From NCBI GenBank assembly GCA_949068525.1, contig CARTIQ010000005.1:292-64291 (forward strand): a stretch of DNA of 64,000 nt, given 5' to 3'. Below, in pieces: positions 3,477-43,936 of this stretch. Numbering within the stretch: position 1 is the first letter of the stretch; each line of letters opens with the position of its first letter. The notes beneath the pieces were generated by a model. It made no database searches, was not told the origin of the DNA, and worked only from the letters and a program-made list of their open reading frames with translations. Both the position numbers and the translations under genes were made by a program. The stretch comes from an uncultured Eubacteriales bacterium (GTDB lineage: Bacteria; Bacillota; Clostridia; Oscillospirales; Acutalibacteraceae).

Positions 3477-6400
3477 TTAATCGAAGGGACCAAACCCTGA
3501 ATATGTGTCGCCATTTTTCTTGTAAGGAGAATTACTTTTGCTTGCAGGATTTTCTTCTTTAGGGGTAGTGGGTGAACCAAATTCTTCATAATTGTTATTT
3601 GTTTCGGCATCCCCGTCAGGGCTGTCCCAAGGGGGTAGGTGAACGGTATTGTTGTTTTGTGGCGTGTTTTGGGGAGGTGTTTGAGCGTTTTGTGGCGTGC
3701 CTTGGTTAGGGGTTTCATTATTATTTTTATTAGGGCTGAAAAAATTTTTAATAGAGCCCCAAAATCCATGGTTGTTTTTTGTAGGAGTGATAGCTGTAGC
3801 CATTTTTATAGGATCAGGTATTTGATTCAAATTCATGTTTAGAGGTGTATGAATTTGTAGCAACGCTGTGGTTGGAGCAGGCGGAGGGGTTTGTTGATTA
3901 TCAGGGAGATTTGTTAAATTGTTAGCTTGATCTAGCGGGTGTTCATTTTCGGGTTGAGGTATCTGCGCATTTTGCTGCTGTGTGTTATCCGTGCGATCAA
4001 GTAAAGGAGTTACGGGTTGCACATTTGTTCCCCGGCGATTCGGAGTTAAAAATGTAGTGGTTTGAGCATGTTGCTGATTTTCTGGGTTTTCAGTCTGTGC
4101 CTCAGCAGGAGTTTCATTCTGTTGCTGATTTTCGTTCTGGTTATTTTCATTTAAATTATCATTTTCATCTTCATCATCGGCAAGTACATCATTATCATCT
4201 AAAAAGTTTGTAGGGGGTTGCAAACCTTTACCATCGCCGAAGTCGCTTCCACTATCAAAAAAATGATTTTCTCCTTCACCCTGTTGCGCCATGTATTCTG
4301 CGGCAACCTGTTTTGTTAGTTTGACTTGATCACTTATATCACTAGAAGTTTCAGATTCAATTCTTACCGCATCTGAGGGGATGTCTGGTATATCCACATC
4401 AGAAAATTTACCGCTTTGCTTATTGTTTTCTTGGTTACGCTCTTGCGTTAATTTTTCCAAAAATTCTCTTGTTAGTCTGATTTGATCACTTATATCACTA
4501 GAAGATTCAGATTCAATTCTTACCGCATCTGAGGAGATGTCTGGTATATCCACATCAAAAAAAATCTTTTCGTTTTCTTCCTCGGTTACATTTTGATTAT
4601 TCTGTTGCTCAGTTTCATTCTGTTGCTGATTTTCGTTCTGGTTATCTTCACTTAAATTATAATTATCATTTTTACTATCAGCGAGATTGTTTTCGTTTTG
4701 TGTTCGGCTATCGTATAAATTGTTAAGCGACTTTGACCTTTTGCTTTGCAAATTTTTGAATAGTTGATTGTCATCTTTCGCAGCAGGAGCTTGATCCTGT
4801 TGCACAATGTTTACATTCTGTGTCTCTTCTTCATTGTTTTCAGTCTGCTCCGCAGCATTTCCATTCTTTGTCTCTTCTTCAGTCGCTTGCTCATTATTAT
4901 CAGCCGGTGGTTCAGTTTCATTCTGTTGCAGATTTTCTTGGGTTACAGGCTGTTGCTGATTTTCGCTAGAATTTGAAGCTGGTTTAATATCTGCCGTAGA
5001 ATCTTTTGAATTTTGGTGGGTTTCTCCTTGTTGATTCTGGCCACTATTGGACACCAATGGAGTTACAGGTGGTTTCTCGGTTTTGTTTGCCTTTGGTGTG
5101 CTAAAAGTCCCGTTAGGTGTTTCTCTTTCTTGAGAATTGTTTTGCGCGCCTTCTTTAGGTCTGTTCATAAGTGGTGATTTAAATCCAGGTCGCGGATTAG
5201 CCGAGCATCTAGATTTTAAAAAAGTATGATTGCTGAGTTCGAAACTTATTTCCCCGAAACGGTCACTTTTATACTTATTTGGAACATAAATAGAGGGGAT
5301 TTCTGTAACCTTGCTATTGCCCATAGAGGAAAAAATGTAAGATTTAGCTGGGTTTTTTAGCCCGTGATAAGTAATGGATTCTAAACTGGAGCAATAAATA
5401 AAAGCAAAACTATCAATAAACTTTACGCTAGCAGGAATAACAAGCTCTTTAAGGCTTAAACAGTTACAAAAAGCCAGCCTCCCAATTGTCTCCAACCCTT
5501 CTGCAAGCTTAATTGAATGTAAGCCAGTGCAGTTTTCAAACGCTGAATTTCCTATAGAAGTTACGCTATTAGGGATTTCTATTTGTTGTAGACTGCTGCA
5601 ATCAGCAAAAGCCTTCTTGCCAATAGAAGTTGTTCCATAGTTTATTTTTACGTTGGTTAAGTTACTGCAGTTTTCAAACGCTGAATTTCCTATAGAAGTT
5701 ACGCTATTAGGGATTTCTATTTGTTGTAGACTGCTGCAATCAGCAAAAGCCTTCTTGCCAATAGAAGTTGTTCCATAGTTTATTTTTACGTTGGTTAAGT
5801 TACTGCAGTTTTCAAACGCCGAATCTCCTATAGAAGTTACGCTATTAGGGATTTCTATTTGTTGTAGACTGCTGCAAAAACCAAAAGCATTCTCGCCAAT
5901 AAAAGTTACGTTAACGGGGATATTAATCTGTTGCAATTTTGTGCAACAAAAAAACGTAAATTTTTCAATAGATTTTAAATTCTTTGGGATATTTATTTGT
6001 TTCAAACTTTCGCAATTCCAAAATACATCTTCCCCAATGGAAGTAACAGTCTCTGGGATTTTTACAGATTCTATGTTTAAACAATCCATAAACGCAGCGC
6101 TGCCAATAGAAGTTACACCTTCTTTTATATTGACAGTTTTTATTTCACCGCTGTATTTGAGTTGCCATGGTGCAGGAGCAATATCTTCGCCCTTATAATC
6201 ATAATTTGCCATATTGCCTGCGCCAGAGATCTCTAGGTTGCCATCTTTATAAAGCACCCATTTAACGTTTTGCCCATTATTTACAGAGGTATCTCCACAA
6301 AAACCTTCTACAAGGATATTCTCATTTGCTGGATCTTCGTTTTGTGTTCGGTTCTCGTATAAATTGTTAAGCGACTTTGCCCTTTTGATTTGTTTGTTGT

Positions 6401-9400
6401 TTTTATTGTTACGTTTATTTTCTAGGATTTTATCATCGGTGTGCGCAACTGTTGTCAACATGTTATTCTTCAAATTTTTGAATAGCTCTTTATCCTTATT
6501 GGCTTCTATAGCAGGCTTTATTAATGCATCAACGTAATCGTATATATCCGTTGGCGATAAACTTCCGAGGTTATCTCCTTCCTCAGCATCTTCTTCATAT
6601 TCCTCGTTAGAACTTATATCAAATTCTTTATAGATTGAATTTTCTGAGCCTCCACTCATATTTTGGTTTGGAAAAGCATTATTCTCACTTTTAGGTTCTT
6701 CAGCGCTATTGGTTTCGTTTTGAGCTTCTTCTTTAGTGCCACCGTCTTTACTCTGTTCAACGCTGGTGAGCCCATTTTCGTTTTCTTCCTCGGTTACATT
6801 TTGATTATTCTGTTGCTCAGTTTCATTCTGTTGCACAGCAGGAGCTTGAGGCTGTAGCATAATGTTTTCATCCGTTTGCGCATTGTTATTAGCCGCTAGC
6901 CCAATGTTTTCAGGATGTAGCTCAACAGGAGCTTCAGACGTTACCTGCATTTTATTCTGTGAGTTTTCAACTTGATTTTCGTCGGAGGTTATTGATGTGT
7001 TTTGAGGTTCTTCGTTGCTTGAAGTTAAACGATCAGTCTTATTTCTTTGTCTACTTCTGCCCGAACCGTTACCTTTTTGTTTTTGATTTTGTTTGTGCCT
7101 TTTTTTCTTATCGGCAAGTTTTTGAGCCGCTAGGGTGTCTTTTTGTGTTTTTTTCTCAAGAGCGTTCAATTGTTGATCGTTGTTCTTTGGAGTTTGAGCT
7201 GATTGCTGATTTTCTTGGGTTACAGGCAGTTGCCCAGTGTTTACAGTCTGTTCCTTAGCATTTTCATTCTGCTGGTCATTTTTATCCTGTAGCTCAACAG
7301 GCGGTTGGGTGTTTTTAGCCGGTTGTTCAGCAGGTGCTTGAGTAACAAATATAATTGGTTGTGCCGCTGGGAGAAATTTATTAATTTCTGTCTGGAGCCA
7401 AGCCTTGTACCGCTTAAATTCATCTGACTGCCTTATTGCTTGAATTCTATTAAGTAAATCCGTATTTTCTTTACGACCTCCAAATAACATAGACAGTATG
7501 GCAGCCTTATTCATAACGTCATTGTATTCATAAACAGGCTCGTCGGCCTGCTTTTCACGAGACCGAAACTCAAATGGGCATTTTTCCTTGACAAATTTTT
7601 GAAATACTTGGGCATCGGTAAAGGTTTTATTGGTTTTAGTGCAATCTTTAGTTATTGTTGTTCCGTCAAGACGAGCGTTGCTGCCGAAGCTGAATACCAT
7701 TTGGTCGGCGTTATAATCAATTTGTGCCGAGAGAGAAAAGGTGCTTAGCTCGCGTTGCACTTCGGGAGGGAGATTTTCAAGGGTGTGGCTTCTTAAATTT
7801 GCGATAAGCTGGTTAAGCTTTTCTTGAGGGGAAGCAGTCTGAGCATTGAGGTCTCTTGTATTTTTTAAAAGAAGTTGCTTAGCTGCTTTAAAGTTTTGCG
7901 TACTAATATTCGGGCAACCATCCGGCTTTAAGAAAGTAACATTGTCAGACTGGGTTGCATCCCAGCTCATTGTACAGACATAATTATCAACATATACATT
8001 CATAGTTGCAGACTCGACTTTGCGGTCTTTATTTTTTTGTGAGACTATAATCGGCACATCAACACAAGTAGTTGCCCGATTAATTAGTTTGGAGTTTTCC
8101 GCTGCATTTTTTATTGCAGCATCTCTATTTTTGGGGCTTCCATCGCTAGATACTATAACAGTTTGCAAATCTTTTGCATTGGCATTTTTGTCGTTGCTTT
8201 CTAAAAAAGACCTTATAAGATTTTCTTTTAATTTTTGTTGCGTTTTTTTAGAAGCTTTATCTATATCGGTTTTTTCAGAAGCTTCGATAAATATATTATA
8301 TCCTTTGTCAAAAGCCGTAAAATAACCGCTATACTGTTGATCTGTCTGTTGATTTGCAGGCCGCAGCCAATTGTACAATCCCGCAGCAAGACTTGCGACG
8401 CCACCCGCAATGGTTCCGGCAATTGCCAAGGGGCTCCAACTAGAGGCTTCTTTATTTGTGCTTTTATCCTCAACCGCTGAGAATGTTGTTATATCTGCAT
8501 TATCCTTGCCAAAGCCTGCAGAATTAGTTTCGCTGTTAGAAAACTTAACTTCGGTACTGCTAGTGTTGCTTGTGTTTGTTTGAGGAGCTCCAGCTTGTAT
8601 TGTTCCGCTGACGTTATCAGGAAAATTAAATGTGTTCGGAGCAATCTCTATATTAGTACCATTTTGTAATTGCATTTCAGCTGCATCGGGGACATTTGAG
8701 CTTTCAATATTTATTACAGGCCGCGTTCCTCTCGGTATATTTGAACCTTTTGGGGTGGTTGTGATTACTTTGTCGCCTGGTATATTTACTCCGGAACTGT
8801 TTGAGATATCATAACTTGTTGGCTTAAGGGATGGTTCTTCTGAATTTCTATCTTCTACTTTTTTTAAGATCCCTACTGTTCTTTGATCAACAGTATCTGC
8901 TAAATCAGGCCTTAAAGGATTATTAACAACCGCTTGTCCTTCATCCACCAATGCGTTGGAGCCACTGCCTTCGTAATTTAAAGGAGTCTTATTAACATCA
9001 ACAGACGTCGGTATATTTGAACCTTGTTGGCCAACGAATTGTGTTGCCGCACTGTCTGCCACCACTACAGGCGTTTGTATTTGAGAGGCATTTTCTTGTA
9101 GCTGTATTTCATTGACATCAACAGGCACTTGTCTAATAAAATGTTCTCCGCTCCATGAGGACCCACCCTCGGTAACAATAGAGTCTAGGTTTTCTAATTT
9201 ACTGCTATCCAAATCGTCTTGTGATGGATTATGCCACTCTCCAGGGGTAAATATTAGATCTTGCGGGAGGGGAGTTACCCTATTATAAGAGGGCAAGTTT
9301 TCGGCTGCTACCCTCCAAGAAGGTGTGATAGTTGTATTCCCCTGTTGTTGTATAGAAGGAGGATTTGTATAACCAAAATCATCTTGTGGAAGTTGATTTA

Positions 9401-11087
9401 GATGGCTATAATATATGGGACTCAACGCACTATGTGCATTGGTAGTATTAGCAAAATTTATGTTTTGGTTTGATTTGTTAATATCGAAGTTATTTGGCGA
9501 TCCTCCTATGCCTAAAGACGTACTTAATAAAGCTATACCTGATTTTACAAATAAAGGAAGCTCGCCGGTGTATACATAATATCCAGCTGCGGCAAGGGTT
9601 CCCGCAGCTAAAGCTCCATATTTTAAAATGTTTCTCCAGCGAGGACTGGAGTTGTTATAGTTATCTATGATTTGCTCATCCTGATTTAGTTGTTCCCCGT
9701 CCTGGTTTGTCGGGTCCCCATCCTGGTTTGTCGGGTCCCCGTCCTGATTTGGCTGTTCCGAAGGCGGAAGGGAGGATACATCATTATCTTCTTGTGAGCT
9801 TGGGTTTGTCGCTTCACCCTGATTCTGAGAGTTTGCGTTGTTCCCTTGACTTAGCTGTTCCTCGGGCTGGCTTTGCGGTCGCTCATCCTGATTTGGCTGT
9901 TCCCCATCCTGGTTTGTCGGGTCCCCATCCTGGTTTGTCGGGTCCCCATCCTGATTTGGCTGTTCCGAAGGCGGAAGGGAGGATACATCATTATCTTCTT
10001 GTGAGCTTGGGTTTGTCGCTTCACCCTGATTCTGAGAGTTTGCGTTGTTCCCTTGACTTAGCTGTTCCTCGGGCTGGCTTTGCGGTCGCTCATCCTGATT
10101 TGGCTGTTCCCCATCCTGGTTTGTCGGGTCCCCATCCTGATTTGGCTGTTCCGAAGCCGGAAGGGAGGATACATCATTATCTTCTTGTGAGCTTGGGTTT
10201 GCCGCTTCATCCTGATTCTGAGGATTTAGGTCTCCATCATGGTCCTGAGTCTTTGTGTCTTCATCTTGATCCTGAGAGTTTGCGTTGTTCCCTTGACTTA
10301 GCTGTTCCTCGGGCTGGTCTGGCTGTTGTTCATCCCGGTTTGTCGGTTCCCCATCCTGATTTGGCTGTTCCTCAGGCTGCATTTGCTGTTCCTCATCCAG
10401 GTTTGTCGGTTGCACATCCAAATTTTGCCCAATACTTTCGTTGGTTGTATTAGCTGTTTTATCCTCTTCTTCATTTCTAATTTCATCTTCAACGAAATTT
10501 GCAATTCCACGGTTTTGCAATGCAAAAGTATTCACACGGTCCGTTTCTTTTGAGGTGTTTTTGCTTTTTTCTTTTCCTAACCTATTAGTATTTGTCGTTG
10601 ACTTTCTGATATTTTTTTGCTTATTATGTTTTTTATTTGATGTTTCATACTTAGAGTCTGCGTTATTCTCCTGAAGCTTTGAGCCAGACTTTTTATGGGA
10701 GTTGTTATTCTCTTCTTGATCTGATTCCCTTACAATAGGGGTAACCAAAGGGTAACTGTTAATTGCTGCCACATTAAGAAAAGAACCCAAAGTTGCAAGC
10801 AAAAATCCCCAGGCGACACTTTGCCGAGAAGCACCCCCGCTTATGTTTAGTAACTCCTCATTGCTTAGTTCAGATATTTGATTTTCTGCATATTCGAGAA
10901 ATTCTTTTGCTGTAAAATTTATTCCATGTTTCTTTGCAATCGGAATAACTTTACTTTTAATAAATTGTTCCTCATCAAAAACGCGATCTTTTTGCTGTAT
11001 TTTGTTATTTATTTTGATTAGTTCTTTTGCAATATTTTCATCGGACCTTATTAGATCAAAAAATTTCTCAACATTTTTAACAGACAT
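3477..11087 (-). CDS. giant (2,536 aa) repeat-rich membrane/surface protein: Nif11-like GG-leader N-terminus, hydrophobic segments, D/E/N/Q/P-rich repeats, unassigned Cys-containing domain, BspA/TpLRR-type leucine-rich repeats
   Basis: This is a single uninterrupted ORF with RBS AAAGGTGG upstream of ATG 11087. Residues 1-85 carry a Nif11-type leader ending ELSNEELLNISGG. Hydrophobic helices lie at about residues 91-113, 487-530 and 884-908. The LRR units read IP.SVTSIG..AF..C..L..I (about residues 1600-1960). I see no Sec signal peptide and no LPXTG motif. Confidence 0.85.
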   Translation of the reverse strand: MSVKNVEKFFDLIRSDENIAKELIKINNKIQQKDRVFDEEQFIKSKVIPIAKKHGINFTAKEFLEYAENQISELSNEELLNISGGASRQSVAWGFLLATLGSFLNVAAINSYPLVTPIVRESDQEENNNSHKKSGSKLQENNADSKYETSNKKHNKQKNIRKSTTNTNRLGKEKSKNTSKETDRVNTFALQNRGIANFVEDEIRNEEEDKTANTTNESIGQNLDVQPTNLDEEQQMQPEEQPNQDGEPTNRDEQQPDQPEEQLSQGNNANSQDQDEDTKTQDHDGDLNPQNQDEAANPSSQEDNDVSSLPASEQPNQDGDPTNQDGEQPNQDERPQSQPEEQLSQGNNANSQNQGEATNPSSQEDNDVSSLPPSEQPNQDGDPTNQDGDPTNQDGEQPNQDERPQSQPEEQLSQGNNANSQNQGEATNPSSQEDNDVSSLPPSEQPNQDGDPTNQDGDPTNQDGEQLNQDEQIIDNYNNSSPRWRNILKYGALAAGTLAAAGYYVYTGELPLFVKSGIALLSTSLGIGGSPNNFDINKSNQNINFANTTNAHSALSPIYYSHLNQLPQDDFGYTNPPSIQQQGNTTITPSWRVAAENLPSYNRVTPLPQDLIFTPGEWHNPSQDDLDSSKLENLDSIVTEGGSSWSGEHFIRQVPVDVNEIQLQENASQIQTPVVVADSAATQFVGQQGSNIPTSVDVNKTPLNYEGSGSNALVDEGQAVVNNPLRPDLADTVDQRTVGILKKVEDRNSEEPSLKPTSYDISNSSGVNIPGDKVITTTPKGSNIPRGTRPVINIESSNVPDAAEMQLQNGTNIEIAPNTFNFPDNVSGTIQAGAPQTNTSNTSSTEVKFSNSETNSAGFGKDNADITTFSAVEDKSTNKEASSWSPLAIAGTIAGGVASLAAGLYNWLRPANQQTDQQYSGYFTAFDKGYNIFIEASEKTDIDKASKKTQQKLKENLIRSFLESNDKNANAKDLQTVIVSSDGSPKNRDAAIKNAAENSKLINRATTCVDVPIIVSQKNKDRKVESATMNVYVDNYVCTMSWDATQSDNVTFLKPDGCPNISTQNFKAAKQLLLKNTRDLNAQTASPQEKLNQLIANLRSHTLENLPPEVQRELSTFSLSAQIDYNADQMVFSFGSNARLDGTTITKDCTKTNKTFTDAQVFQKFVKEKCPFEFRSREKQADEPVYEYNDVMNKAAILSMLFGGRKENTDLLNRIQAIRQSDEFKRYKAWLQTEINKFLPAAQPIIFVTQAPAEQPAKNTQPPVELQDKNDQQNENAKEQTVNTGQLPVTQENQQSAQTPKNNDQQLNALEKKTQKDTLAAQKLADKKKRHKQNQKQKGNGSGRSRQRNKTDRLTSSNEEPQNTSITSDENQVENSQNKMQVTSEAPVELHPENIGLAANNNAQTDENIMLQPQAPAVQQNETEQQNNQNVTEEENENGLTSVEQSKDGGTKEEAQNETNSAEEPKSENNAFPNQNMSGGSENSIYKEFDISSNEEYEEDAEEGDNLGSLSPTDIYDYVDALIKPAIEANKDKELFKNLKNNMLTTVAHTDDKILENKRNNKNNKQIKRAKSLNNLYENRTQNEDPANENILVEGFCGDTSVNNGQNVKWVLYKDGNLEISGAGNMANYDYKGEDIAPAPWQLKYSGEIKTVNIKEGVTSIGSAAFMDCLNIESVKIPETVTSIGEDVFWNCESLKQINIPKNLKSIEKFTFFCCTKLQQINIPVNVTFIGENAFGFCSSLQQIEIPNSVTSIGDSAFENCSNLTNVKINYGTTSIGKKAFADCSSLQQIEIPNSVTSIGNSAFENCSNLTNVKINYGTTSIGKKAFADCSSLQQIEIPNSVTSIGNSAFENCTGLHSIKLAEGLETIGRLAFCNCLSLKELVIPASVKFIDSFAFIYCSSLESITYHGLKNPAKSYIFSSMGNSKVTEIPSIYVPNKYKSDRFGEISFELSNHTFLKSRCSANPRPGFKSPLMNRPKEGAQNNSQERETPNGTFSTPKANKTEKPPVTPLVSNSGQNQQGETHQNSKDSTADIKPASNSSENQQQPVTQENLQQNETEPPADNNEQATEEETKNGNAAEQTENNEEETQNVNIVQQDQAPAAKDDNQLFKNLQSKRSKSLNNLYDSRTQNENNLADSKNDNYNLSEDNQNENQQQNETEQQNNQNVTEEENEKIFFDVDIPDISSDAVRIESESSSDISDQIRLTREFLEKLTQERNQENNKQSGKFSDVDIPDIPSDAVRIESETSSDISDQVKLTKQVAAEYMAQQGEGENHFFDSGSDFGDGKGLQPPTNFLDDNDVLADDEDENDNLNENNQNENQQQNETPAEAQTENPENQQHAQTTTFLTPNRRGTNVQPVTPLLDRTDNTQQQNAQIPQPENEHPLDQANNLTNLPDNQQTPPPAPTTALLQIHTPLNMNLNQIPDPIKMATAITPTKNNHGFWGSIKNFFSPNKNNNETPNQGTPQNAQTPPQNTPQNNNTVHLPPWDSPDGDAETNNNYEEFGSPTTPKEENPASKSNSPYKKNGDTYSGFGPFD
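4327..4556 (-). repeat. two copies of a 156-bp coding repeat (core ~75 bp nearly identical)
   Basis: TGATCACTTATATCACTAGAAG.TTCAGATTCAATTCTTACCGCATCTGAGG.GATGTCTGGTATATCCACATCA begins at 4327 and again at 4483. It encodes …DVDIPDI(S/P)SDAVRIESE(S/T)SSDISDQ…. Confidence 0.85.
5526..5875 (-). repeat. ~2.5 near-identical tandem copies of a 138-bp unit (two LRR units, 46 aa) inside the LRR block
   Basis: The same string starts at about 5528, 5666 and 5804, giving a 138-bp period. The first two copies match essentially base for base. The unit encodes IPNSVTSIGNSAFENCSNLTNVKINYGTTSIGKKAFADCSSLQQIE. Confidence 0.9.
9690..10300 (-). repeat. three tandem ~207/207/186-bp coding repeats (D/E/N/Q/P/S-rich low-complexity units)
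   Basis: GAAGGCGGAAGGGAGGATACATC recurs at 9760 and 9967, with a variant at 10153. The units encode SSLPPSEQPNQDGDPTNQDG…ERPQSQPEEQLSQGNNANSQNQGEATNPSSQEDNDV. Confidence 0.9.
10833..11087 (-). other. segment encoding the Nif11-type leader-like domain ending in the double-glycine motif (residues 1-85 of the giant protein)
   Basis: The sequence is MSVKNVEKFFDLIRSDENIAKELIK…IAKKHGINFTAKEFLEYAENQISELSNEELLNISGG|ASRQS. Codons 84-85 (GG) lie at 10833-10838. Confidence 0.6.
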
Positions 11088-22595: not shown

Positions 22596-23345
22596 ATGTT
22601 ATGGGGTGATATTTTGAAAAAATTGAAATGGGGCAATGACACCGTTTTTTATTCTCTAGTCTTGTGCGGATATATTGCCTTTTCGGCTTTAATTTTGAAT
22701 GCATGTTTTTTGCATGCTTCACGGCAGGCCTCTTTGAAGGGAGGTTCATATTTTCCGACGATTATACTTGATGCAGGGCACGGAGGAGTTGATAGCGGTG
22801 CAGTGGGGCTTAATAACGTGCTTGAAAAGGACATAAATTTAGATATTGTGCTCAAACTTAAAAGCTTGTTTGAAGTTTCGGGCTTTAACATAAAAATGAC
22901 GCGGGATGAGGATGAGTCTATACATAGCGAAAATTCGAACACGATCCGGTCTAAGAAGGTTTCAGATTTAAAGAACCGTCTGAGCATGATAAACAGCGAC
23001 CCGAGCAACTTGCTGATAAGTGTTCACCAGAACAAGTTTGAAGACAGCAAGTATAAGGGAGCGCAGGTATTTTACTCGAAGAATAATCCGCAGAGCCAAG
23101 AGCTTGCACAGAGCATCCGAGCTTCGTTTTTAGCTTTTATCCAAAAGGATAATAACCGTGAAATAAAGCCCTCTCCAAAAGGAGTTTTTCTTTTGAATAA
23201 ATCTACCGTTCCGGCGGTTATCGTTGAATGCGGATTTTTGTCGAACAGCGAGGACGTGAGGAATTTGCTGGATAAAAAATATCAGTCGAAGCTAGCTTTT
23301 GCAATTTTTTGCGGTTTTTTGGACTACTGGCGTAAATCAGGGTGA
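22596..23345 (+). CDS. cwlD: N-acetylmuramoyl-L-alanine amidase CwlD (Amidase_3, spore cortex muramic-lactam formation)
   Basis: Motifs ILDAGHGG.DSGA…EKDINL…, S.H.N and ECGFLSN are present, with an N-terminal TM helix. TTG 22614 (after GGGGTGA) is an alternative start. Confidence 0.85.
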   Translation: MLWGDILKKLKWGNDTVFYSLVLCGYIAFSALILNACFLHASRQASLKGGSYFPTIILDAGHGGVDSGAVGLNNVLEKDINLDIVLKLKSLFEVSGFNIKMTRDEDESIHSENSNTIRSKKVSDLKNRLSMINSDPSNLLISVHQNKFEDSKYKGAQVFYSKNNPQSQELAQSIRASFLAFIQKDNNREIKPSPKGVFLLNKSTVPAVIVECGFLSNSEDVRNLLDKKYQSKLAFAIFCGFLDYWRKSG

Positions 23346-25673
23346 GTCGGACAGACTTATTGCAATCACTGTTATATCGTCGTCGAACTCATCGGACGTG
23401 TTTTTTACAATTTTCTTTACGATAGAATCCGCGATTTGTTGGGGGTCTTGATTCTCCCAACTTTTTAAAGTATCCTCAAGCCACTCATCACTTTTAGAAA
23501 CTGCTCCATCCGAGACCATAAGTATTTTGTCATTAGCTGCAAGAGTGTTAGTGCTTTGCGAGATGTTAACGTCCTTCAATATGCCAATAGGCAAGGAATT
23601 TGGCATGTGACGAATCACGTTTTCACCTCTTTTAATTAATGTAAGTGGAGCGCCAGCCTTTAAAAGCTTTGTAGTTCCTGTAAATAAGTCCACACAGAGG
23701 ATGTCTAGGGTGGACAAAAACTCGTCTTCTGACTTTATCAACAGTAAAGAGTTGGTTATCTTGACCGCGGTAGGGAGGTTTATTCCAGCCTTTATTAGGT
23801 CTTCCATGATTCGGCAAGCCATTGCCCCCTCGACAGCGGCTCGTCCGCCAGTTCCCATGCCATCGCTTAATATAACAACTATGTGTCCGGCGCCATCATT
23901 AAAATATGTATAATTATCTCCACACAGCACACCGTTTTTGCAAATGTGTTGGGCGATACCAACGTGAACGTTAAAAGCTGGTTTTTCTACTAGCTGTATT
24001 TTGCAAGCACTAAAATTGGAAGTAACGGTGGGGGAGTCAAGCCTTTTTTGGCAGATCCTTGATAGCTTTTTTGAAAGATTCACTTTTTCGAAATTGCCGT
24101 TATTAACTGTTCCAGTAACTTCTATTTCTATAGAGATCCGACCGTATTCATCGTATCTGCAGCAAACATCAAGCGGGGCAAAACCGAGAGCTTTAAGTTT
24201 TGCGGTAATTTTCTGGGCTAGTTTGGTGTCAAAAGTACTGCAATTTTTAACTCCATCAATAATGTCAGAAAGTAAAAGCCCAACATCGCAGAATTGTTCT
24301 GAGACAAAATCACGCACTTGAGAAACCCTGCTTTCTGCAACTTTCTTTTTGGACATTTCATCATAAAACAAGTTGATGTTACTTGTTATTTCGGCAGCTC
24401 GGCCGCACCTTTGTGAAAAACTCGAAGGCAAATCGTTTGCAGTTATTTTTCCTTTTTCGCACAAAATTTCGTTAATCTTCGAAAACGAACTAAGAGTATC
24501 TGTAGTTTTAGAGTCAAAGCAGAAGCTTCGAAGCCCGCAGCTGCTGCAGACTTTATGAACCGCCGCTGAGTATATATCGCAACTTTTGCTGACATTAATT
24601 TTAGTCAAATTTTCGGCAACTGAATTAATCGTGCTAGAGATGTTAATTAATGCCCGAGAAGCAGAATTTAGACGCATCGCTACAGCATTTTTGAAGCTTT
24701 GCTCTTGCTCATAACGATTAAGTTGGGCAGTAAAAAAGTTTGTAAATTTTTCCCCTATATCATCGCGCAAAAAAAGAAAAATTAAGCTAGCAGCAAGAAT
24801 TTCATAAATACCAGAAATAATAATGGCAGGATCATAGGCCTGGTTAGAGATAATCATGCTAGAAGTCAAGAAAGCTAGGCAACAAGCCATTTTACCAAAG
24901 CAAGCAACAAATCCAGCAATCAGGCCACCAAAAGCGTATGCACCCATAATATAGGTTGGTTCCTTAAAGGCAAGCCCTAACAGCACCCCTGCGGTGGTCC
25001 CGGCGATGCTACCGCCGACTATGCCTAGATATTTTGCACAAAACATTATTACCAAAATTGCCAAAACCTTGCCAATAGAAATGCACCCCAAATTTACCGT
25101 CAGCAGGGACAAAATTACCATAAAAGTTGTCATGCAGATGCAGACAAAGTCTGCTTGATCTATGGTTCTGTTTTGTGCCGATAAAATATTTGTGGCTTCA
25201 GAAAAGAAATAAGCCGCGCCTCCTGATAAAATGGCCTCCGAAAGGCAGATCATAACCTCGCTAAAGTCGGCTGTGTTAAATATATTAATTGCAAAACCAG
25301 TGGCAATGATGGTTGCAAAAGAATGAATCGGTGCAAACAGTTTGCTGGTTTTAACTTTGGGCAAATCGTTTAACGTCCAGCGGATGGCGCAAATGGCAAC
25401 AGCAGTAGACACATAGCGGATGCCAAAGTGAACCTCACTTGGTAAAATGTAGCCGATTATAACGCCTAAAAAGCTAAAAAACATATTATTATAAGGCACG
25501 GCAGCTAAGAAGGAACTCCCAAACGGCGCGTATGCGCCAAAAGCAACACCTTTGGATATGAATACCCCTAGAATAAAGCACACGGTGTTTTCTGCCAAGA
25601 TTTTTGCATGGTCTGCCGGTAGTAGATTTTTTATATTTTGACTGGCCGACCCGATTAAGCTGGTACTTTTCAT
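23337..25673 (-). CDS. spoIIE: stage II sporulation protein E (polytopic membrane PP2C phosphatase)
   Basis: The protein is 778 aa. About 10 N-terminal TM helices are followed by a central regulatory region and a C-terminal PP2C domain (CGDNY…VILSDGMGTGGRA…L.MVSDG…DD.T). Confidence 0.92.
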   Translation of the reverse strand: MKSTSLIGSASQNIKNLLPADHAKILAENTVCFILGVFISKGVAFGAYAPFGSSFLAAVPYNNMFFSFLGVIIGYILPSEVHFGIRYVSTAVAICAIRWTLNDLPKVKTSKLFAPIHSFATIIATGFAINIFNTADFSEVMICLSEAILSGGAAYFFSEATNILSAQNRTIDQADFVCICMTTFMVILSLLTVNLGCISIGKVLAILVIMFCAKYLGIVGGSIAGTTAGVLLGLAFKEPTYIMGAYAFGGLIAGFVACFGKMACCLAFLTSSMIISNQAYDPAIIISGIYEILAASLIFLFLRDDIGEKFTNFFTAQLNRYEQEQSFKNAVAMRLNSASRALINISSTINSVAENLTKINVSKSCDIYSAAVHKVCSSCGLRSFCFDSKTTDTLSSFSKINEILCEKGKITANDLPSSFSQRCGRAAEITSNINLFYDEMSKKKVAESRVSQVRDFVSEQFCDVGLLLSDIIDGVKNCSTFDTKLAQKITAKLKALGFAPLDVCCRYDEYGRISIEIEVTGTVNNGNFEKVNLSKKLSRICQKRLDSPTVTSNFSACKIQLVEKPAFNVHVGIAQHICKNGVLCGDNYTYFNDGAGHIVVILSDGMGTGGRAAVEGAMACRIMEDLIKAGINLPTAVKITNSLLLIKSEDEFLSTLDILCVDLFTGTTKLLKAGAPLTLIKRGENVIRHMPNSLPIGILKDVNISQSTNTLAANDKILMVSDGAVSKSDEWLEDTLKSWENQDPQQIADSIVKKIVKNTSDEFDDDITVIAISLSDSP

Positions 25674-40116: not shown

Positions 40117-40299
40117 ATGGCAGTGCCAAAGAGAAAGCATTCTAAAGCTAGGCGAGATAAAAGACGTTCTAACGTTTGGAAAATAGAAGCGCCAGCAATT
40201 ATTAAATGCCCACAGTGTGGAGAATTTAAATTGCCACATAGGGTTTGCAAGGCTTGTGGGTTCTATAATGGCCGCGAGATTATAAAGGTAGAAGCTTAA
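40117..40299 (+). CDS. rpmF: 50S ribosomal protein L32
   Basis: ATG 40117 follows AAGGAGGG. The sequence is MAVPKRKHSKARRDKRR…CPQCGE.KLPHRVC..CG.Y. Confidence 0.95.
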   Translation: MAVPKRKHSKARRDKRRSNVWKIEAPAIIKCPQCGEFKLPHRVCKACGFYNGREIIKVEA

Positions 40300-40314
40300 G
40301 GTTTGTCTAATATA

Positions 40315-40348
40315 AAAGAGAGGGCCGGGTTGCGACCTTCTCTTTTTT
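40315..40348 (+). terminator. intrinsic terminator after rpmF
   Basis: The stem is AAAGAGAGG(40315-40323)/CCTtCTCTTT(40336-40345) with one bulge, running into a T6 tract. It lies inside the spurious N-terminal extension of the der ORF. Confidence 0.55.
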
Positions 40349-40383
40349 GTTTAGAAGAGTTAAAAAAGGATAGGGGGAAAAGG

Positions 40384-41709
40384 ATGGCAAAACCAATTGT
40401 TGCTATTATTGGGCGCCCGAATGTTGGAAAATCTACTTTATTTAATAAGCTAGTGGGGCAGAGGGTTGCGATTGTTGAGGATGTGCCTGGTGTTACTAGA
40501 GACAGAATTTATGGTGAATGTGAGTGGAGAGGGCGGAGCTTTACTATTATTGATACAGGCGGAATTGAGCCTCATTCGGATGATATTATTTTGTCCCAGA
40601 TGAGGAACCAGGCTCAACTTGCGATGGACTCTGCAGATGTGATAATTTTGGTTGTGGATATAAAGACAGGAATTGTGGCGACGGACTATGAGATTGCTAC
40701 CATGTTGCAAAAGAGCGGACGTCCTGTTATTTTGTGTGTAAACAAATGCGATAAAGTTGGTGCACCTGATGCTGATTTTTATGAATTCTATAATTTAGGG
40801 CTGGGGGAACCAATAATGGTTTCCTCTGTGCATGGCCATGGTACGGGAGATTTGCTGGATGAAGTTTTGAAAAATCTGCCTGACTCTACTAGCTTTGATA
40901 CAGAGGCAGATTCAATTATAAATGTAGCGGTCATTGGCAAACCAAATGTAGGCAAGTCATCGCTTATAAATAAGATAACTGGTGAAGATCGCTGCATTGT
41001 TTCTGAAATTGCGGGTACGACGCGCGACTCTATTGACACTTTTATAAAAAATAATTTTGGAAATTTTAATTTTGTGGACACAGCCGGGATTCGTCGGCAA
41101 AGCAAGGTTACAGACGCGGTCGAAAAATATAGTATTATCCGGGCTAAGATGGCAGTTGAGCGTAGCGACGTCTGTGTTATTATGATAGATGCCACTGAGG
41201 GATTCACTGAGCAAGACTCAAAGGTGGCAGGACTTGCGGTTAATGCCGGGAAAGCGTGTATTGTTGCCGTTAATAAATGGGACGCGGTTGAAAAGACGGA
41301 TAAGACTTTTACGAGCTATAAAAAAAGGCTTGAGAATGATTTTTCGTTTATACATTATGCACCGATCTTATTTATATCGGTAAAAACGGGGCAACGAATA
41401 GAAAAATTATTTGAGATTATAACGCAGGTTTTCAAGTCGAGTGTTACGCGGATCTCAACTGGGGTGCTAAATGAAGTTTTGGCAGAAGCTGCCCTTAGAG
41501 TTCAGCCACCAACGGACAAAGGCAAACGCCTAAAGATTTTTTTTGTAACGCAAGTTTCTCTGCAACCTCCTACATTCGTATTTTTTGTAAATTCTGCAAA
41601 ACTTTTTCACTTTTCATATCAGAGGTATCTCGAGAATAAATTTAGAGAGACGTTCTCTTTACAAGGGACTCCAATAAGGTTTATAATAAGAGAGAAAGAA
41701 GATCGCTAG
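40384..41709 (+). CDS. der: ribosome biogenesis GTPase Der (EngA), tandem GTPase domains plus KH-like domain
   Basis: ATG 40384 starts MAKPIVAIIGRPNVGKSTLFN. The second G domain has GKPNVGKSSLIN. DTGG/DTAG and NK.D motifs appear twice. Confidence 0.95.
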   Translation: MAKPIVAIIGRPNVGKSTLFNKLVGQRVAIVEDVPGVTRDRIYGECEWRGRSFTIIDTGGIEPHSDDIILSQMRNQAQLAMDSADVIILVVDIKTGIVATDYEIATMLQKSGRPVILCVNKCDKVGAPDADFYEFYNLGLGEPIMVSSVHGHGTGDLLDEVLKNLPDSTSFDTEADSIINVAVIGKPNVGKSSLINKITGEDRCIVSEIAGTTRDSIDTFIKNNFGNFNFVDTAGIRRQSKVTDAVEKYSIIRAKMAVERSDVCVIMIDATEGFTEQDSKVAGLAVNAGKACIVAVNKWDAVEKTDKTFTSYKKRLENDFSFIHYAPILFISVKTGQRIEKLFEIITQVFKSSVTRISTGVLNEVLAEAALRVQPPTDKGKRLKIFFVTQVSLQPPTFVFFVNSAKLFHFSYQRYLENKFRETFSLQGTPIRFIIREKEDR

Positions 41710-41737
41710 TTTTTATATGCGCATTAGGAGTGATTTT

Positions 41738-42454
41738 TTGGAAGTTCAGGCAATTAATTTTTTTAAGTTTTATTGGTTTCAAATGGTTCTTGTGGCGGTT
41801 ATAGGCTATTTGATTGGCAGCGTCAGTTTTTCTATTTTGTTTACAAGGCAATTTAAAAATAAGGAAGATATTAGAAATCTTGGGAGCGGAAATGCTGGTT
41901 TTACAAATGTGCTGCGCTCGGTTGGTTTTTGGCCAGCTTTTTTGACTATGTTGGGAGACTTTAGTAAGGGAATTATTGCTTGCTTGTTTGGCAAAATGAT
42001 TTTTTCGCAGATTAATTTAGCCGGAGTGCCGACGTTTTGCATTGTCCAGTATGGAATTTATATCGCTGGAGTTGCATGTTTGGCGGGGCATGTTTACCCA
42101 TGCTTTTTTGAGCTTAGAGGAGGCAAGGCTGTTTTAACGGCATTCTCAATGCTGATTATGACGGACTGGCAGGTTGCGGCTCTTTCTTTTGCTGTTTTTT
42201 TGATTATAGTTTTTACCACACGATTAGTATCCTTGGGTTCAATATTGGCGGCCGTTGCATACCCTGTTTTTACTTTTTGCATCACATATTTTTGCGACTA
42301 CCTCGGCGATCGCCGCCCAGCGACATTTGGATATACTGTGGTAGTCACAACTGCGGCGGTTTTAATAAGTGTTTTTGTGATTTATAAACACAAAAAGAAT
42401 CTAACAAGGCTTCTAAACGGAGAAGAAAAAAAGTTAACTGTAGCAACAAAATAA
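41738..42454 (+). CDS. plsY: glycerol-3-phosphate acyltransferase PlsY
   Basis: The ORF runs from 41717; TTG 41738 lies 7 nt after AGGAG, and ATG 41783 is also possible. Motifs present: IGYLIGS.SFSI, GSGN.G.TNV.R, KG and GH.YP.F…GGK. Confidence 0.88.
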   Translation: MEVQAINFFKFYWFQMVLVAVIGYLIGSVSFSILFTRQFKNKEDIRNLGSGNAGFTNVLRSVGFWPAFLTMLGDFSKGIIACLFGKMIFSQINLAGVPTFCIVQYGIYIAGVACLAGHVYPCFFELRGGKAVLTAFSMLIMTDWQVAALSFAVFLIIVFTTRLVSLGSILAAVAYPVFTFCITYFCDYLGDRRPATFGYTVVVTTAAVLISVFVIYKHKKNLTRLLNGEEKKLTVATK

Positions 42455-42464
42455 AATTGAATAT

Positions 42465-42520
42465 AAAAAAATAAACCTGCAGAAATACTAAAATAATAGT
42501 ATAAATACAGGTTTTTAATT
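42465..42520. terminator. bidirectional terminator-like hairpin between convergent plsY and the GG-leader peptide gene
   Basis: The stem is AAACCTG(42473-42479)/CAGGTTT(42508-42514). It is flanked by an A-run upstream and TTTTTAATTTT downstream. The loop is long and has some internal pairing. Confidence 0.45.
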
Positions 42521-42533
42521 TTATCAAAAAATT

Positions 42534-42764
42534 TTAATTAATAAGGTTTTGCTTTAGCTGTTCACTCATCCCGTATACATTGCCTCCAGAGGCAGCATCT
42601 AGTTCATCGGAGCTTAACTCCAGACCGTCCGATATTTTTTTAAACAGACGATCTAACTCTTCTTTTGCTAAATTTAAGCCATTGCTTTTGGCTAAAGAAG
42701 AAAGCTCTGGTTTGGTTTTGCAGTCTTTGGCAAAGTTTAAAAATTCTTTTATAGTCATAGCCAT
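42534..42764 (-). CDS. Nif11-like / double-glycine leader peptide precursor (76 aa; 15-aa predicted core)
   Basis: The sequence is MAMTIKEFLNFAKDCKTKPELSSLAKSNGLNLAKEELDRLFKKISDGLELSSDELDAASGG|NVYGMSEQLKQNLIN. Leader features (N-terminal …KEFL.…A…, then ELS.DEL.AASGG) resemble TIGR03798/Nif11-type precursors. A weak RBS AGGA sits 7 nt upstream. Confidence 0.6.
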   Translation of the reverse strand: MAMTIKEFLNFAKDCKTKPELSSLAKSNGLNLAKEELDRLFKKISDGLELSSDELDAASGGNVYGMSEQLKQNLIN

Positions 42765-42844
42765 AAAATCATCCTAAATTAAAAATTTATTTAAAATTCA
42801 ACGAACCTCAAATTCTAAAACAAACCCTATTCAAAAACAAAAAC

Positions 42845-43033
42845 TTAGACAGCTCTGGTAACCTTGCCGGACCTCAAACAACGGGTACAAGCATAAACAC
42901 GCTTAGGCGTTCCATTAACAAGAGCTTTAACGCGCCGAACATTTGGCTTGAAAGCCCGGTTAGAGCGACGATGAGAGTGAGAAACATTTATTCCAAAAGC
43001 GATACTTTTACCGCAAACATCACACATAGCCAT
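42845..43033 (-). CDS. rpmB: 50S ribosomal protein L28
   Basis: The sequence is MAMCDVCGK….G..VSHS.RR..R.F.PN…V…NG..KR..VCT.CL.SGKV. Confidence 0.93.
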   Translation of the reverse strand: MAMCDVCGKSIAFGINVSHSHRRSNRAFKPNVRRVKALVNGTPKRVYACTRCLRSGKVTRAV

Positions 43034-43222
43034 AAAAATTGCACCTCCTTAAGCAGCACAAAAATACACTTAATAATATTAACAGAGATTTGCAAAAAAA
43101 TCAAGCCCCTTCTTCATTTTGGTTTAATAGTTAATATGGTTGAATTTTTGACAAAGTAAATCTGTTAAAGTTATAATTAAATAAGTTGTAAATTTAAAGC
43201 AAAACTGAGAGAGTGATTATAA

Positions 43223-43936
43223 ATGTGGTTTTTGCAAGAAGGAATGACGCTAGGACAAGCGCTGGTAGTGATATTTGCACTGCTTTTGACGATTTTTATA
43301 GTCTTACCAATACATGAATGGGCACACGGCTTTCTGGCATATAAGTTAGGGGATAATACTGCAAAAAATAGTGGTAGACTAACATTAAATCCGTTAAAAC
43401 ATATTGATCCTCTTGGGGCATCGGCGCTGCTTCTTTTTAAATTTGGCTGGGCAAGGCCTGTGCCAGTGAACCCAAGAAATTTTAAAAGGCCAAAGCTCGG
43501 TATGGCGCTAACAGCGCTAGCAGGGCCACTTTCGAACTTAATTGTAGCTCTGATTGCACTTCTACTTGCAACTATAGCATATGCTTTTGGAGGGAATATT
43601 TTAAACTTAATGGGGGAAGAGGAATCTAACTTTTTTGTTATGCCGTTTTTTGGATTTATATATTTTATGTTCTTAATTTATAACGTTAATTTGGGCTTAG
43701 CGGTTTTTAACTTAATTCCGCTTCCGCCACTTGATGGGTCAAAGATTTTAGAGGCTTTTTTGCCAGACAAATTTTTAAATAAATATTATCAATACGAAGG
43801 TTACATATCAATTATCGTTTTTGCATTGCTGTTTACGGGCATGCTATCTAGCCCTGTGGCCTTTTTTGAAAAAATAATCCATAATATTACAATGGCCCCA
43901 CTTACGCATTTGTTTCAATTTTTGGGCAAAGGGTAA
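43223..43936 (+). CDS. site-2 protease family (M50) membrane metalloprotease
   Basis: The protein is polytopic with the HExxH motif HEWAHG. Downstream motifs NL.PL.PLDGSKIL and LNP.KHIDP.G are present. Confidence 0.85.
   Translation: MWFLQEGMTLGQALVVIFALLLTIFIVLPIHEWAHGFLAYKLGDNTAKNSGRLTLNPLKHIDPLGASALLLFKFGWARPVPVNPRNFKRPKLGMALTALAGPLSNLIVALIALLLATIAYAFGGNILNLMGEEESNFFVMPFFGFIYFMFLIYNVNLGLAVFNLIPLPPLDGSKILEAFLPDKFLNKYYQYEGYISIIVFALLFTGMLSSPVAFFEKIIHNITMAPLTHLFQFLGKG

Follow-up and report, generated by a model that had tools for sequence, protein, structure and literature searches.

The window studied here is a stretch of 64,000 nucleotides (nt) from an uncultured Eubacteriales bacterium of the family Acutalibacteraceae (assembly GCA_949068525.1, contig CARTIQ010000005.1), whose genome we refer to as G000. 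Coordinates are window positions unless a contig of this genome is named. Directly downstream of rpmB and convergent to plsY, the minus strand carries an open reading frame (ORF) of 76 codons starting with ATG, which is the subject of this report. A preliminary description, made from the sequence alone, had interpreted this ORF as the gene of a peptide with a double-glycine (GG) leader, and the translation is exactly the 76 amino acids (aa) quoted there. The housekeeping surroundings were also found as described: rpmF, der and plsY could be located on one side and rpmB on the other, at a distance of 80 nt and on the same strand as the ORF (Table 1). We argue below that the ORF is a conserved gene, that its product belongs to a divergent branch of the Nif11-type double-glycine leader peptides, and that it is probably cleaved and exported by a distally encoded transporter, which would release a short tail acting as a secreted effector or signal.

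Among 5.8 billion proteins searched, 16 relatives of the prepeptide were detected, with identities of 57-99%; most are 74-77 aa long, and none is named. Intact orthologues are present in 13 of the 14 other genomes of the genus (51-92% identity), one of them being cut by a contig end. The remaining assembly, G011 (90% complete), does not contain the gene, but as rpmB is missing there as well, this absence is uninformative. In 26 genomes of other genera, only weak, leader-only matches to paralogues were obtained. The peptide gene is single-copy and part of the core genome of the genus. The prepeptide has 74 aa in most relatives, as against 76 aa in the window. Outside the clade of the window, which comprises the window itself and its orthologues of 91-92% identity (loci L017-L019 and L011), the orthologues start at M3 (MTIKEF); the clade of the window has two extra residues (MA).

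The order rpmB > peptide gene < plsY is kept in most species (loci L011, L013-L015), and both the ORF and its GG motif are conserved at this locus in related genomes, as the preliminary description had supposed. In four lineages the gene has been relocated: it follows spoIIE, adjoins ychF, lies between murA and proS or, in one case, is on an unresolved short contig. All four have kept it intact and in single copy. Neither frameshifts nor stop codons occur in any of 15 orthologues. Nei-Gojobori counts over 13 orthologues gave a proportion of synonymous differences (pS) of ~0.7, which is saturated, and a proportion of non-synonymous differences (pN) of 0.20 in the leader and 0.37 in the tail. 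In close pairs the non-synonymous rate (dN) is far below the synonymous rate (dS) in leader and tail alike; for example, L016 and L017 differ at 20 synonymous and 7 non-synonymous sites, and the cores of L025 and L027 have a pS of 0.90 and a pN of 0.02. Because of this conservation among orthologues and the dN/dS pattern, we regard the ORF as a real gene under purifying selection, beyond what a chance ORF would present.

Two observations concern the loci of relatives. In a more distant relative (locus L012; GCA_054296245.1, contig JAZSWZ010000133.1), which has the orthologue behind spoIIE, the genes of two additional Nif11-domain proteins, of 74 aa and 511 aa, are found 3 kb upstream. Spore_YtfJ occurs in the syntenic loci of relatives.

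The nature of the leader emerged from a profile of 11 orthologues, which was searched against 1.84 billion representative proteins and retrieved 654 of them at E <= 1e-3. Close orthologues aside, nearly all of these matches cover profile positions ~4 to 60-63, at their own N-terminus; the match ends at the GG (profile positions 58-59) and goes no further. Those inspected are peptides of 67-136 aa with the pattern MELTKELLAKAKEAKTAEELLALAKENGIELT...GELSDEELDNVAGG, behind which the cores are unrelated and in many cases rich in Cys. When ten of the matches were tested with TIGR03798 (leader_Nif11), all ten were recognised, three of them (P0021, P0026, P0030) above the cut-off. Given that the profile leads to Nif11-type leaders and stops at the GG, the peptide family is, on the strength of this homology, a divergent branch of the Firmicute Nif11-type double-glycine leaders, with a homology boundary that coincides with the predicted cleavage site.

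The end of the leader agrees with what is known of its processing. LahT150 needs no more than the last 13 residues of a Nif11-type leader to recognise it; the leader helix puts V-4, L-7 and L-12 into a hydrophobic groove of the C39 peptidase domain, and cleavage occurs after the GG (PMC6363468). The C-terminus of the present leader, ELSSDELDAASGG, offers L-12, L-7, A-4, G-2 and G-1. Among orthologues, the GG and L48 (position -12) are invariant, position -7 is L or F, and position -4 is A or I. These residues fit the recognition pattern of LahT and of peptidase-containing ABC (ATP-binding cassette) transporters (PCATs). An AlphaFold2 (AF2) model based on the orthologue alignment is of moderate quality, with a mean predicted local distance difference test score (pLDDT) of 69. 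It contains three helices in the N-terminal part (pLDDT 70-80), another at residues 50-57, a disordered segment at residues 58-62 around the GG (pLDDT < 50) and a short C-terminal helix. This layout would be compatible with a leader, a linker and a tail. A Foldseek search of the model against the PDB returned nothing at E <= 0.001, only generic helical bundles, and a sequence search of the PDB gave weak matches only, to calmodulin-like helices and to 9zn4_A, a 'Nif11 domain-containing protein' (E = 0.012).

Behind the GG the preliminary description had placed a hydrophilic core of 15 aa without Cys. This is borne out by the sequence NVYGMSEQLKQNLIN, which has a net charge of 0. Across the genus the tail has 15-17 aa, contains no Cys and follows the consensus x(T/V)(Y/F)(G/A)x(S/T/N)..Q(L/I)xx(L/F)I(N/K); its variants include NVYGMS..., STYAFN... 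and TTYGIT.... It differs in this respect from a glycine-rich, bacteriocin-like peptide of 111 aa encoded elsewhere in the genome, at one of the exporter loci discussed below (the C1 locus). The 111-aa peptide has no orthologue even in the sister species in which the orphan peptide is 91-92% identical; only leader-level matches of 31-44% were found. The contrast is drawn with this one tested peptide of the C1 locus. Conservation and purifying selection in a short, single-copy tail match what one would expect of a secreted effector or signal acting on a conserved target, and not of an arms-race toxin. Class II bacteriocins are marked by a cationic and/or hydrophobic core of ~25-60 aa, an adjacent immunity gene and a patchy distribution, whereas here we found 15 aa with a charge of 0, no adjacent small membrane-protein gene, and presence throughout the genus. 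The earlier preference for a signalling role over a bacteriocin is thus favoured by the comparative data, which set a conserved, selected tail against a bacteriocin-like peptide without orthologues.

The sequences flanking the gene allow some statements on its expression. Between the stop codons of the peptide gene and plsY lies a hairpin of -21.1 kcal/mol (z = -4.96; none of 200 shuffled sequences was as stable), bordered by an A-run and, at its opposite end, a T-run. It had already been recognised in the preliminary description and reads as a bidirectional terminator for the two genes. On the minus strand of the 80-nt spacer to rpmB we found neither a terminator-like fold (z = -1.16) nor a sigma-70 match of at least 9/12, which makes read-through from rpmB into the peptide gene plausible. 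Outside the clade of the window, the ATG of the orthologues is preceded by a strong Shine-Dalgarno sequence (AAGGAG(G) or GAGGTG). Most of these orthologues (loci L020-L028, L012 and L013) also have a perfect TATAAT (TACAAT in L012) ~25-35 nt 5' of the start codon, and most end in a hairpin of their own. Their spacer to rpmB measures 130-300 nt, compared with the 80 nt without a good promoter match in the clade of the window. Expression in the latter may have shifted from an own promoter to read-through from rpmB.

No exporter gene was found within the window, and no modifying enzyme adjoins the peptide gene. To this extent the statement that no transporter, protease or modifying enzyme is nearby was correct. 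It did not hold for proteases, as a Peptidase_M50 gene (site-2-protease family, HExxH; 43223-43936, plus strand) lies divergent from rpmB at 460 bp from the peptide gene. It heads a conserved M50-scpA-scpB housekeeping block and does not travel with the relocated peptide gene. An antisense ORF of 65 aa (42580..42777, plus strand) has no support, and the conservation pattern tracks the minus-strand frame.

Table 1. Features of the peptide locus and of related loci in genome G000. Positions refer to the window unless a contig (C1, C4) is given.
Feature	Position	Strand	Remarks
Coding sequence of 76-aa prepeptide	42534..42764	-	stop codon 42534..42536; alternative start M3 at 42758
Predicted Nif11-type double-glycine leader, residues 1-61	42582..42764	-	N-terminal 3-helix domain; C-terminal recognition helix ELSSDELDAASGG with L-12, L-7, A-4
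GG codons GGA GGC, residues 60-61	42582..42587	-	predicted C39 cleavage site after G61; GG invariant in all full-length orthologues
Predicted mature peptide NVYGMSEQLKQNLIN	42537..42581	-	15 aa, no Cys, net charge 0
Shine-Dalgarno-like AGGATGA	42769..42775	-	7 nt upstream of ATG1 (AGGA)
rpmB-to-peptide spacer, 80 nt	42765..42844	-	no terminator-like hairpin, no promoter match >=9/12
Putative bidirectional intrinsic terminator, shared with convergent plsY	42465..42514	.	stem 42473..42514; T-run 42465..42472 on minus strand; T-rich run after stem on plus strand
rpmB (ribosomal protein L28)	42845..43033	-	PF00830, 72.8 bits; upstream neighbour, same strand
plsY (glycerol-3-phosphate acyltransferase)	41717..42454	+	PF02660, 162.9 bits; convergent neighbour
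der	40303..41709		upstream of plsY
rpmF	about 40117..40299		upstream of plsY
SpoIIE	23337..25673		sporulation gene kept in genome
2536-aa protein	3477..11087	-	first 85 residues = related Nif11-type GG leader; TIGR03798 22.5 bits
PCAT	C4:36784-38967		C39 + ABC_membrane + ABC_tran
PCAT	C1:262713-264884		C39 + ABC_membrane + ABC_tran
Locus L050	C1:255937-265806		~12 tandem GG-leader peptide genes (Nif11-type and short leaders) upstream of 728-aa ABC protein without C39, 723-aa PCAT and HlyD-like gene
Locus L051	C4:34533-39789		HlyD-like gene, 727-aa PCAT, 730-aa second ABC protein without C39 match; no peptide gene alongside

The genome (1.07 Mb in 18 contigs, 97% complete) contains Peptidase_C39 twice, in each case as a complete domain (118 and 128 bits) within a PCAT. 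The two loci have the same plan, with an HlyD-like gene, the PCAT and a second ABC half-transporter of equal size that gives no C39 match, which suggests that the PCAT and its C39-less partner would form a heterodimer. As both loci lie on other contigs, the shared and distally encoded exporter that had been postulated is supported at the level of gene content. The C4 locus, having no peptide gene of its own, is a candidate exporter for dispersed Nif11-GG substrates. The C1 locus encodes several GG peptides with glycine-rich cores resembling class II bacteriocins. At its head, beside the ABC gene, is an 86-aa GG peptide with a 13-aa core, AFSRAMEIFNNYY, for which 13 of 14 congeners have a counterpart of 42-94% identity. 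Embedded among the peptide genes of this locus is the gene of a DUF7005 protein (238 bits; C1:256377-257258, minus strand; L050:2377-3258), which could be an immunity or processing factor.

TIGR03798 marks 16 segments in G000, including four large proteins (595, 1132, 1501 and 2536 aa) and an isolated gene of 96 aa. At least 15 other Nif11-GG genes accompany the peptide gene in the genome, so that the further paralogous precursors for which a search had been proposed do exist. For the same reason the term orphan, which had been applied to the gene, is appropriate to its position but not to its family. The isolated 96-aa gene (locus L052; C1:274932-275123, plus strand) encodes a Nif11-like GG leader ending in LSDEMLENAAGG and a core reading VSASFNAESFGFGGPRDTTIINFN.

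The longest of the large proteins is encoded in the window itself, and the claim that the window holds two GG-leader genes ~32 kb apart proved accurate, the start codons being separated by 31.7 kb. The leader of this giant protein ends in ELSNEELLNISGG, which aligns without gaps to ELSSDELDAASGG. By BLASTP the two leaders are 38% identical over 52 residues, and the alignment ends exactly at the GG, in agreement with the shared leader ending pointed out before. The giant protein is a second predicted substrate of the same exporters. All four large proteins, i.e. the one in the window (3477-11087, minus strand, 2536 aa) and those at C1:~299429 (595 aa), C1:~9472 (1501 aa) and C10:~16333 (1132 aa), start with a Nif11-type leader and a GG that is directly followed by a hydrophobic segment. 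This arrangement suggests that large surface proteins may be handled by PCATs in this 1-Mb genome.

Most of the preliminary interpretation was supported by these analyses, and the following sequence of events would account best for the data. The gene would give rise to a 76-aa prepeptide with a Nif11-type double-glycine leader, the C-terminal helix of which (L-12, L-7, A-4, G-2, G-1) would dock in the C39 domain of one of the two PCATs. The peptidase would then cut after G61, and the 15-residue peptide NVYGMSEQLKQNLIN would be exported unmodified. As the tail is short, uncharged, free of Cys, genus-core, single-copy and under purifying selection, it is most likely a secreted effector or signal. 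We consider this explanation moderately probable and prefer it to those discussed below. What sequence comparison shows directly is that the gene is real and under selection, that the homology of its leader to GG leaders extends as far as the GG, and that PCAT genes are present; from these we infer cleavage, export, the lack of modification and the signalling role.

Several results weigh against this explanation. The only family model to match the prepeptide is TIGR03798, and its score of 18.6 bits (E = 0.0017) is well below the cut-off of 32.3. A Pfam scan gave no match, not even to PF07862 at E <= 10, and the orthologue P0018, with 28.5 bits, is still under the TIGR03798 cut-off. The preliminary description had named both models as the means to recognise the leader; they did not suffice for this, and it was the orthologue profile that recovered hundreds of Nif11-type GG leaders. 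Furthermore, the alanine at position -4 is smaller than the usual V, I or L. The N-terminal 27 residues (MTIxEFxxFAKxCKTKxELxSLAKSNG) are nearly invariant among orthologues, which exceeds the 13 residues needed for C39 recognition (PMC6363468); possibly, then, the leader domain binds a partner or serves a separate function. The partner may be a modifying enzyme or the transporter body; alternatively, the domain may have its own role in a protein that is perhaps not cleaved. No exporter or receptor is linked to the peptide gene in any genomic context examined. Between one and four PCATs occur in every congener and none in two genomes of neighbouring genera that lack the peptide, but within the genus the co-occurrence does not discriminate, because every member has both. 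Lastly, the canonical circuit of GG pheromones is missing: LytTR (PF04397) has no match in the 97%-complete genome, and HATPase_c_5 (PF14501) has a single weak match (26.4 bits) that is not linked to the peptide gene. A circuit of the ComC/BlpC type was rejected on account of the missing LytTR domain, and a receptor of the peptide would not be of the LytTR/HPK10 type.

Part of these findings would be explained if the product were a cytosolic protein with a Nif11 fold that is never cleaved and acts inside the cell, the GG serving as a flexible hinge between the three-helix domain and the C-terminal helix. A gene of the core genome, single-copy and adjoining ribosomal and lipid genes, without a terminator after rpmB and possibly co-transcribed with it, would suit such a protein, as would the conservation over the full length and in the N-terminal 27 residues in particular, the compact helical N-domain of the AF2 model and the lack of a linked exporter. 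A hinge does not explain, however, why the homology to hundreds of precursors ends exactly at the GG and is followed by unrelated sequence, or why the full PCAT recognition pattern (L-12, L-7, a small hydrophobic residue at -4, GG) is found in every orthologue. It is also at odds with the retention of two PCATs and many sibling substrates in a genome of only 1 Mb, and with the own promoter and terminator that were kept where the gene left rpmB. We therefore regard an uncleaved protein as unlikely, although it is the most serious alternative to a cleaved and exported peptide.

Clearly less probable is a precursor of a ribosomally synthesised and post-translationally modified peptide (RiPP), whose core (e.g. 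its conserved Tyr, Ser/Thr or Gln) would be modified by a distally encoded enzyme recognising the conserved leader, before cleavage and export by a PCAT. In Nif11-type RiPPs the modifying enzyme is recruited by the leader. The N-terminus of the present leader is more conserved than C39 recognition requires (PMC6363468). Moreover, Y62 and Q67 are nearly invariant in the core, and remote relatives with the same leader carry Cys-rich, RiPP-like cores. The core of the present peptide, on the other hand, has no Cys, and no modifying enzyme adjoins the gene in at least four genomic contexts. None was seen in the C1 PCAT locus either, the DUF7005 protein aside, no systematic genome-wide search for RiPP enzymes having been made.

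Somewhat more doubtful still is a toxin of the class II bacteriocin or microcin type, unmodified and exported by a PCAT. It would make use of the same GG leader and transporter, and typical glycine-rich, bacteriocin-like siblings are indeed encoded in the C1 locus. Against it stand a core of only 15-17 aa that is hydrophilic with a charge of ~0, purifying selection on this core throughout the genus as opposed to the hypervariability of the bacteriocin-like sibling, and the lack of an adjacent immunity-like gene in any context examined. We take the conserved tail beside a hypervariable sibling as an argument for a conserved secreted, possibly signalling, peptide. That the short ORF, which has no Pfam match and is unnamed in every source, arose by chance or is a non-coding element such as an extended rpmB 3' untranslated region or a terminator region is most improbable and is ruled out as far as comparative data allow, given saturated synonymous sites in a conserved protein, intact reading frames in 15 orthologues, a conserved Shine-Dalgarno sequence, persistence after relocation, and an Rfam scan of 41500..43400 (E <= 1) whose single match is at chance level and inside plsY.

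Among known systems, the closest are the Nif11-like leader peptide precursors (N11P; TIGR03798 / PF07862), reportedly described by Haft et al. in 2010. With these and with LahA the peptide shares the homology over the whole leader that stops at the GG, a PCAT with C39 in the genome and a gut Firmicute as the host. LahA1-9 of Lachnospiraceae C6A11, which are cut by LahT (PMC6363468), likewise have a helical leader of ~60 residues ending in ...ELxxxELxxAxGG. The peptide differs from Nif11-like precursors in that it scores below the curated cut-off and has a Cys-free core of 15 aa that is conserved and not hypervariable. Its gene also stands alone in a housekeeping neighbourhood, without a biosynthetic or exporter cluster and without an evident modifying enzyme. 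We therefore place it among the Nif11-type double-glycine leader peptides, as a positionally orphan addition whose core is unusually short and conserved.

In its organisation the peptide may be compared to an orphan GG peptide such as BriC of Streptococcus pneumoniae, rather than to a bacteriocin. BriC belongs to the core GG peptides; its gene lies directly behind the type II fatty acid synthesis (FASII) locus and is co-transcribed with fab genes, the peptide is unmodified and leaves the cell through the distal PCAT ComAB, and no receptor is known for it (PMC8265628, PMC7595303). The likeness consists in a core GG peptide gene downstream of a housekeeping locus and not beside an exporter or receptor, the last point applying to VP1 as well, and is an analogy at the level of organisation only: no sequence relationship to BriC was found, and its regulation by ComE has no counterpart here, as the genome encodes no LytTR regulator. 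The leader of BriC is of the short type typical of GG peptides and is not a Nif11 domain.

ComC/CSP, BlpC/BIP and PlnA resemble the present peptide in having a GG leader followed by a short (about 17-27 aa), linear, unmodified peptide that is exported by a PCAT (PMC7595303), a likeness that for our peptide includes a presumed lack of modification. Their genes adjoin an HPK10-type kinase and a LytTR regulator, whereas the present genome has no LytTR domain, and the type of leader differs as well. Class II GG bacteriocins follow the same export logic, and the C1 PCAT locus seems to contain typical examples of them, but the present core falls short of their length, has neither a cationic nor a hydrophobic character, is conserved in the genus and lacks an immunity gene.

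Double-glycine peptides are usually found beside exporters, modifying enzymes or two-component systems, and the present peptide would be missed by such mining as well as by curated HMM (hidden Markov model) thresholds, although it ranks with the best-conserved GG peptides of the genus. With it, a candidate secreted peptide of 15 defined residues is available for an uncultured lineage of the mouse and human gut that is related to Clostridium sp. CAG:557. In a genome of ~1 Mb, this lineage has kept two PCATs along with 15 or more Nif11-GG substrates, giant surface proteins among them, and it appears to rely heavily on PCAT export. A more far-reaching but rather unlikely reading is that this gut Clostridia genus with reduced genomes of ~1 Mb uses the Nif11 leader and PCAT as a general secretion route and that the orphan peptide is its conserved, constitutively expressed (rpmB-linked) small product. 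The peptide might then represent a new class of Nif11-led signals sensed by a non-LytTR receptor, or the near-invariant leader might itself be functional, for instance in controlling or priming the PCATs through which the giant surface proteins would likewise be exported. Should the peptide be merely another GG peptide of unknown role, the finding would be ordinary. If it proves to serve as a signal, PCAT-dependent peptide signalling would reach further than the ComC/BlpC model of streptococci and lactobacilli and would include a Nif11-type leader and a receptor of unknown class.

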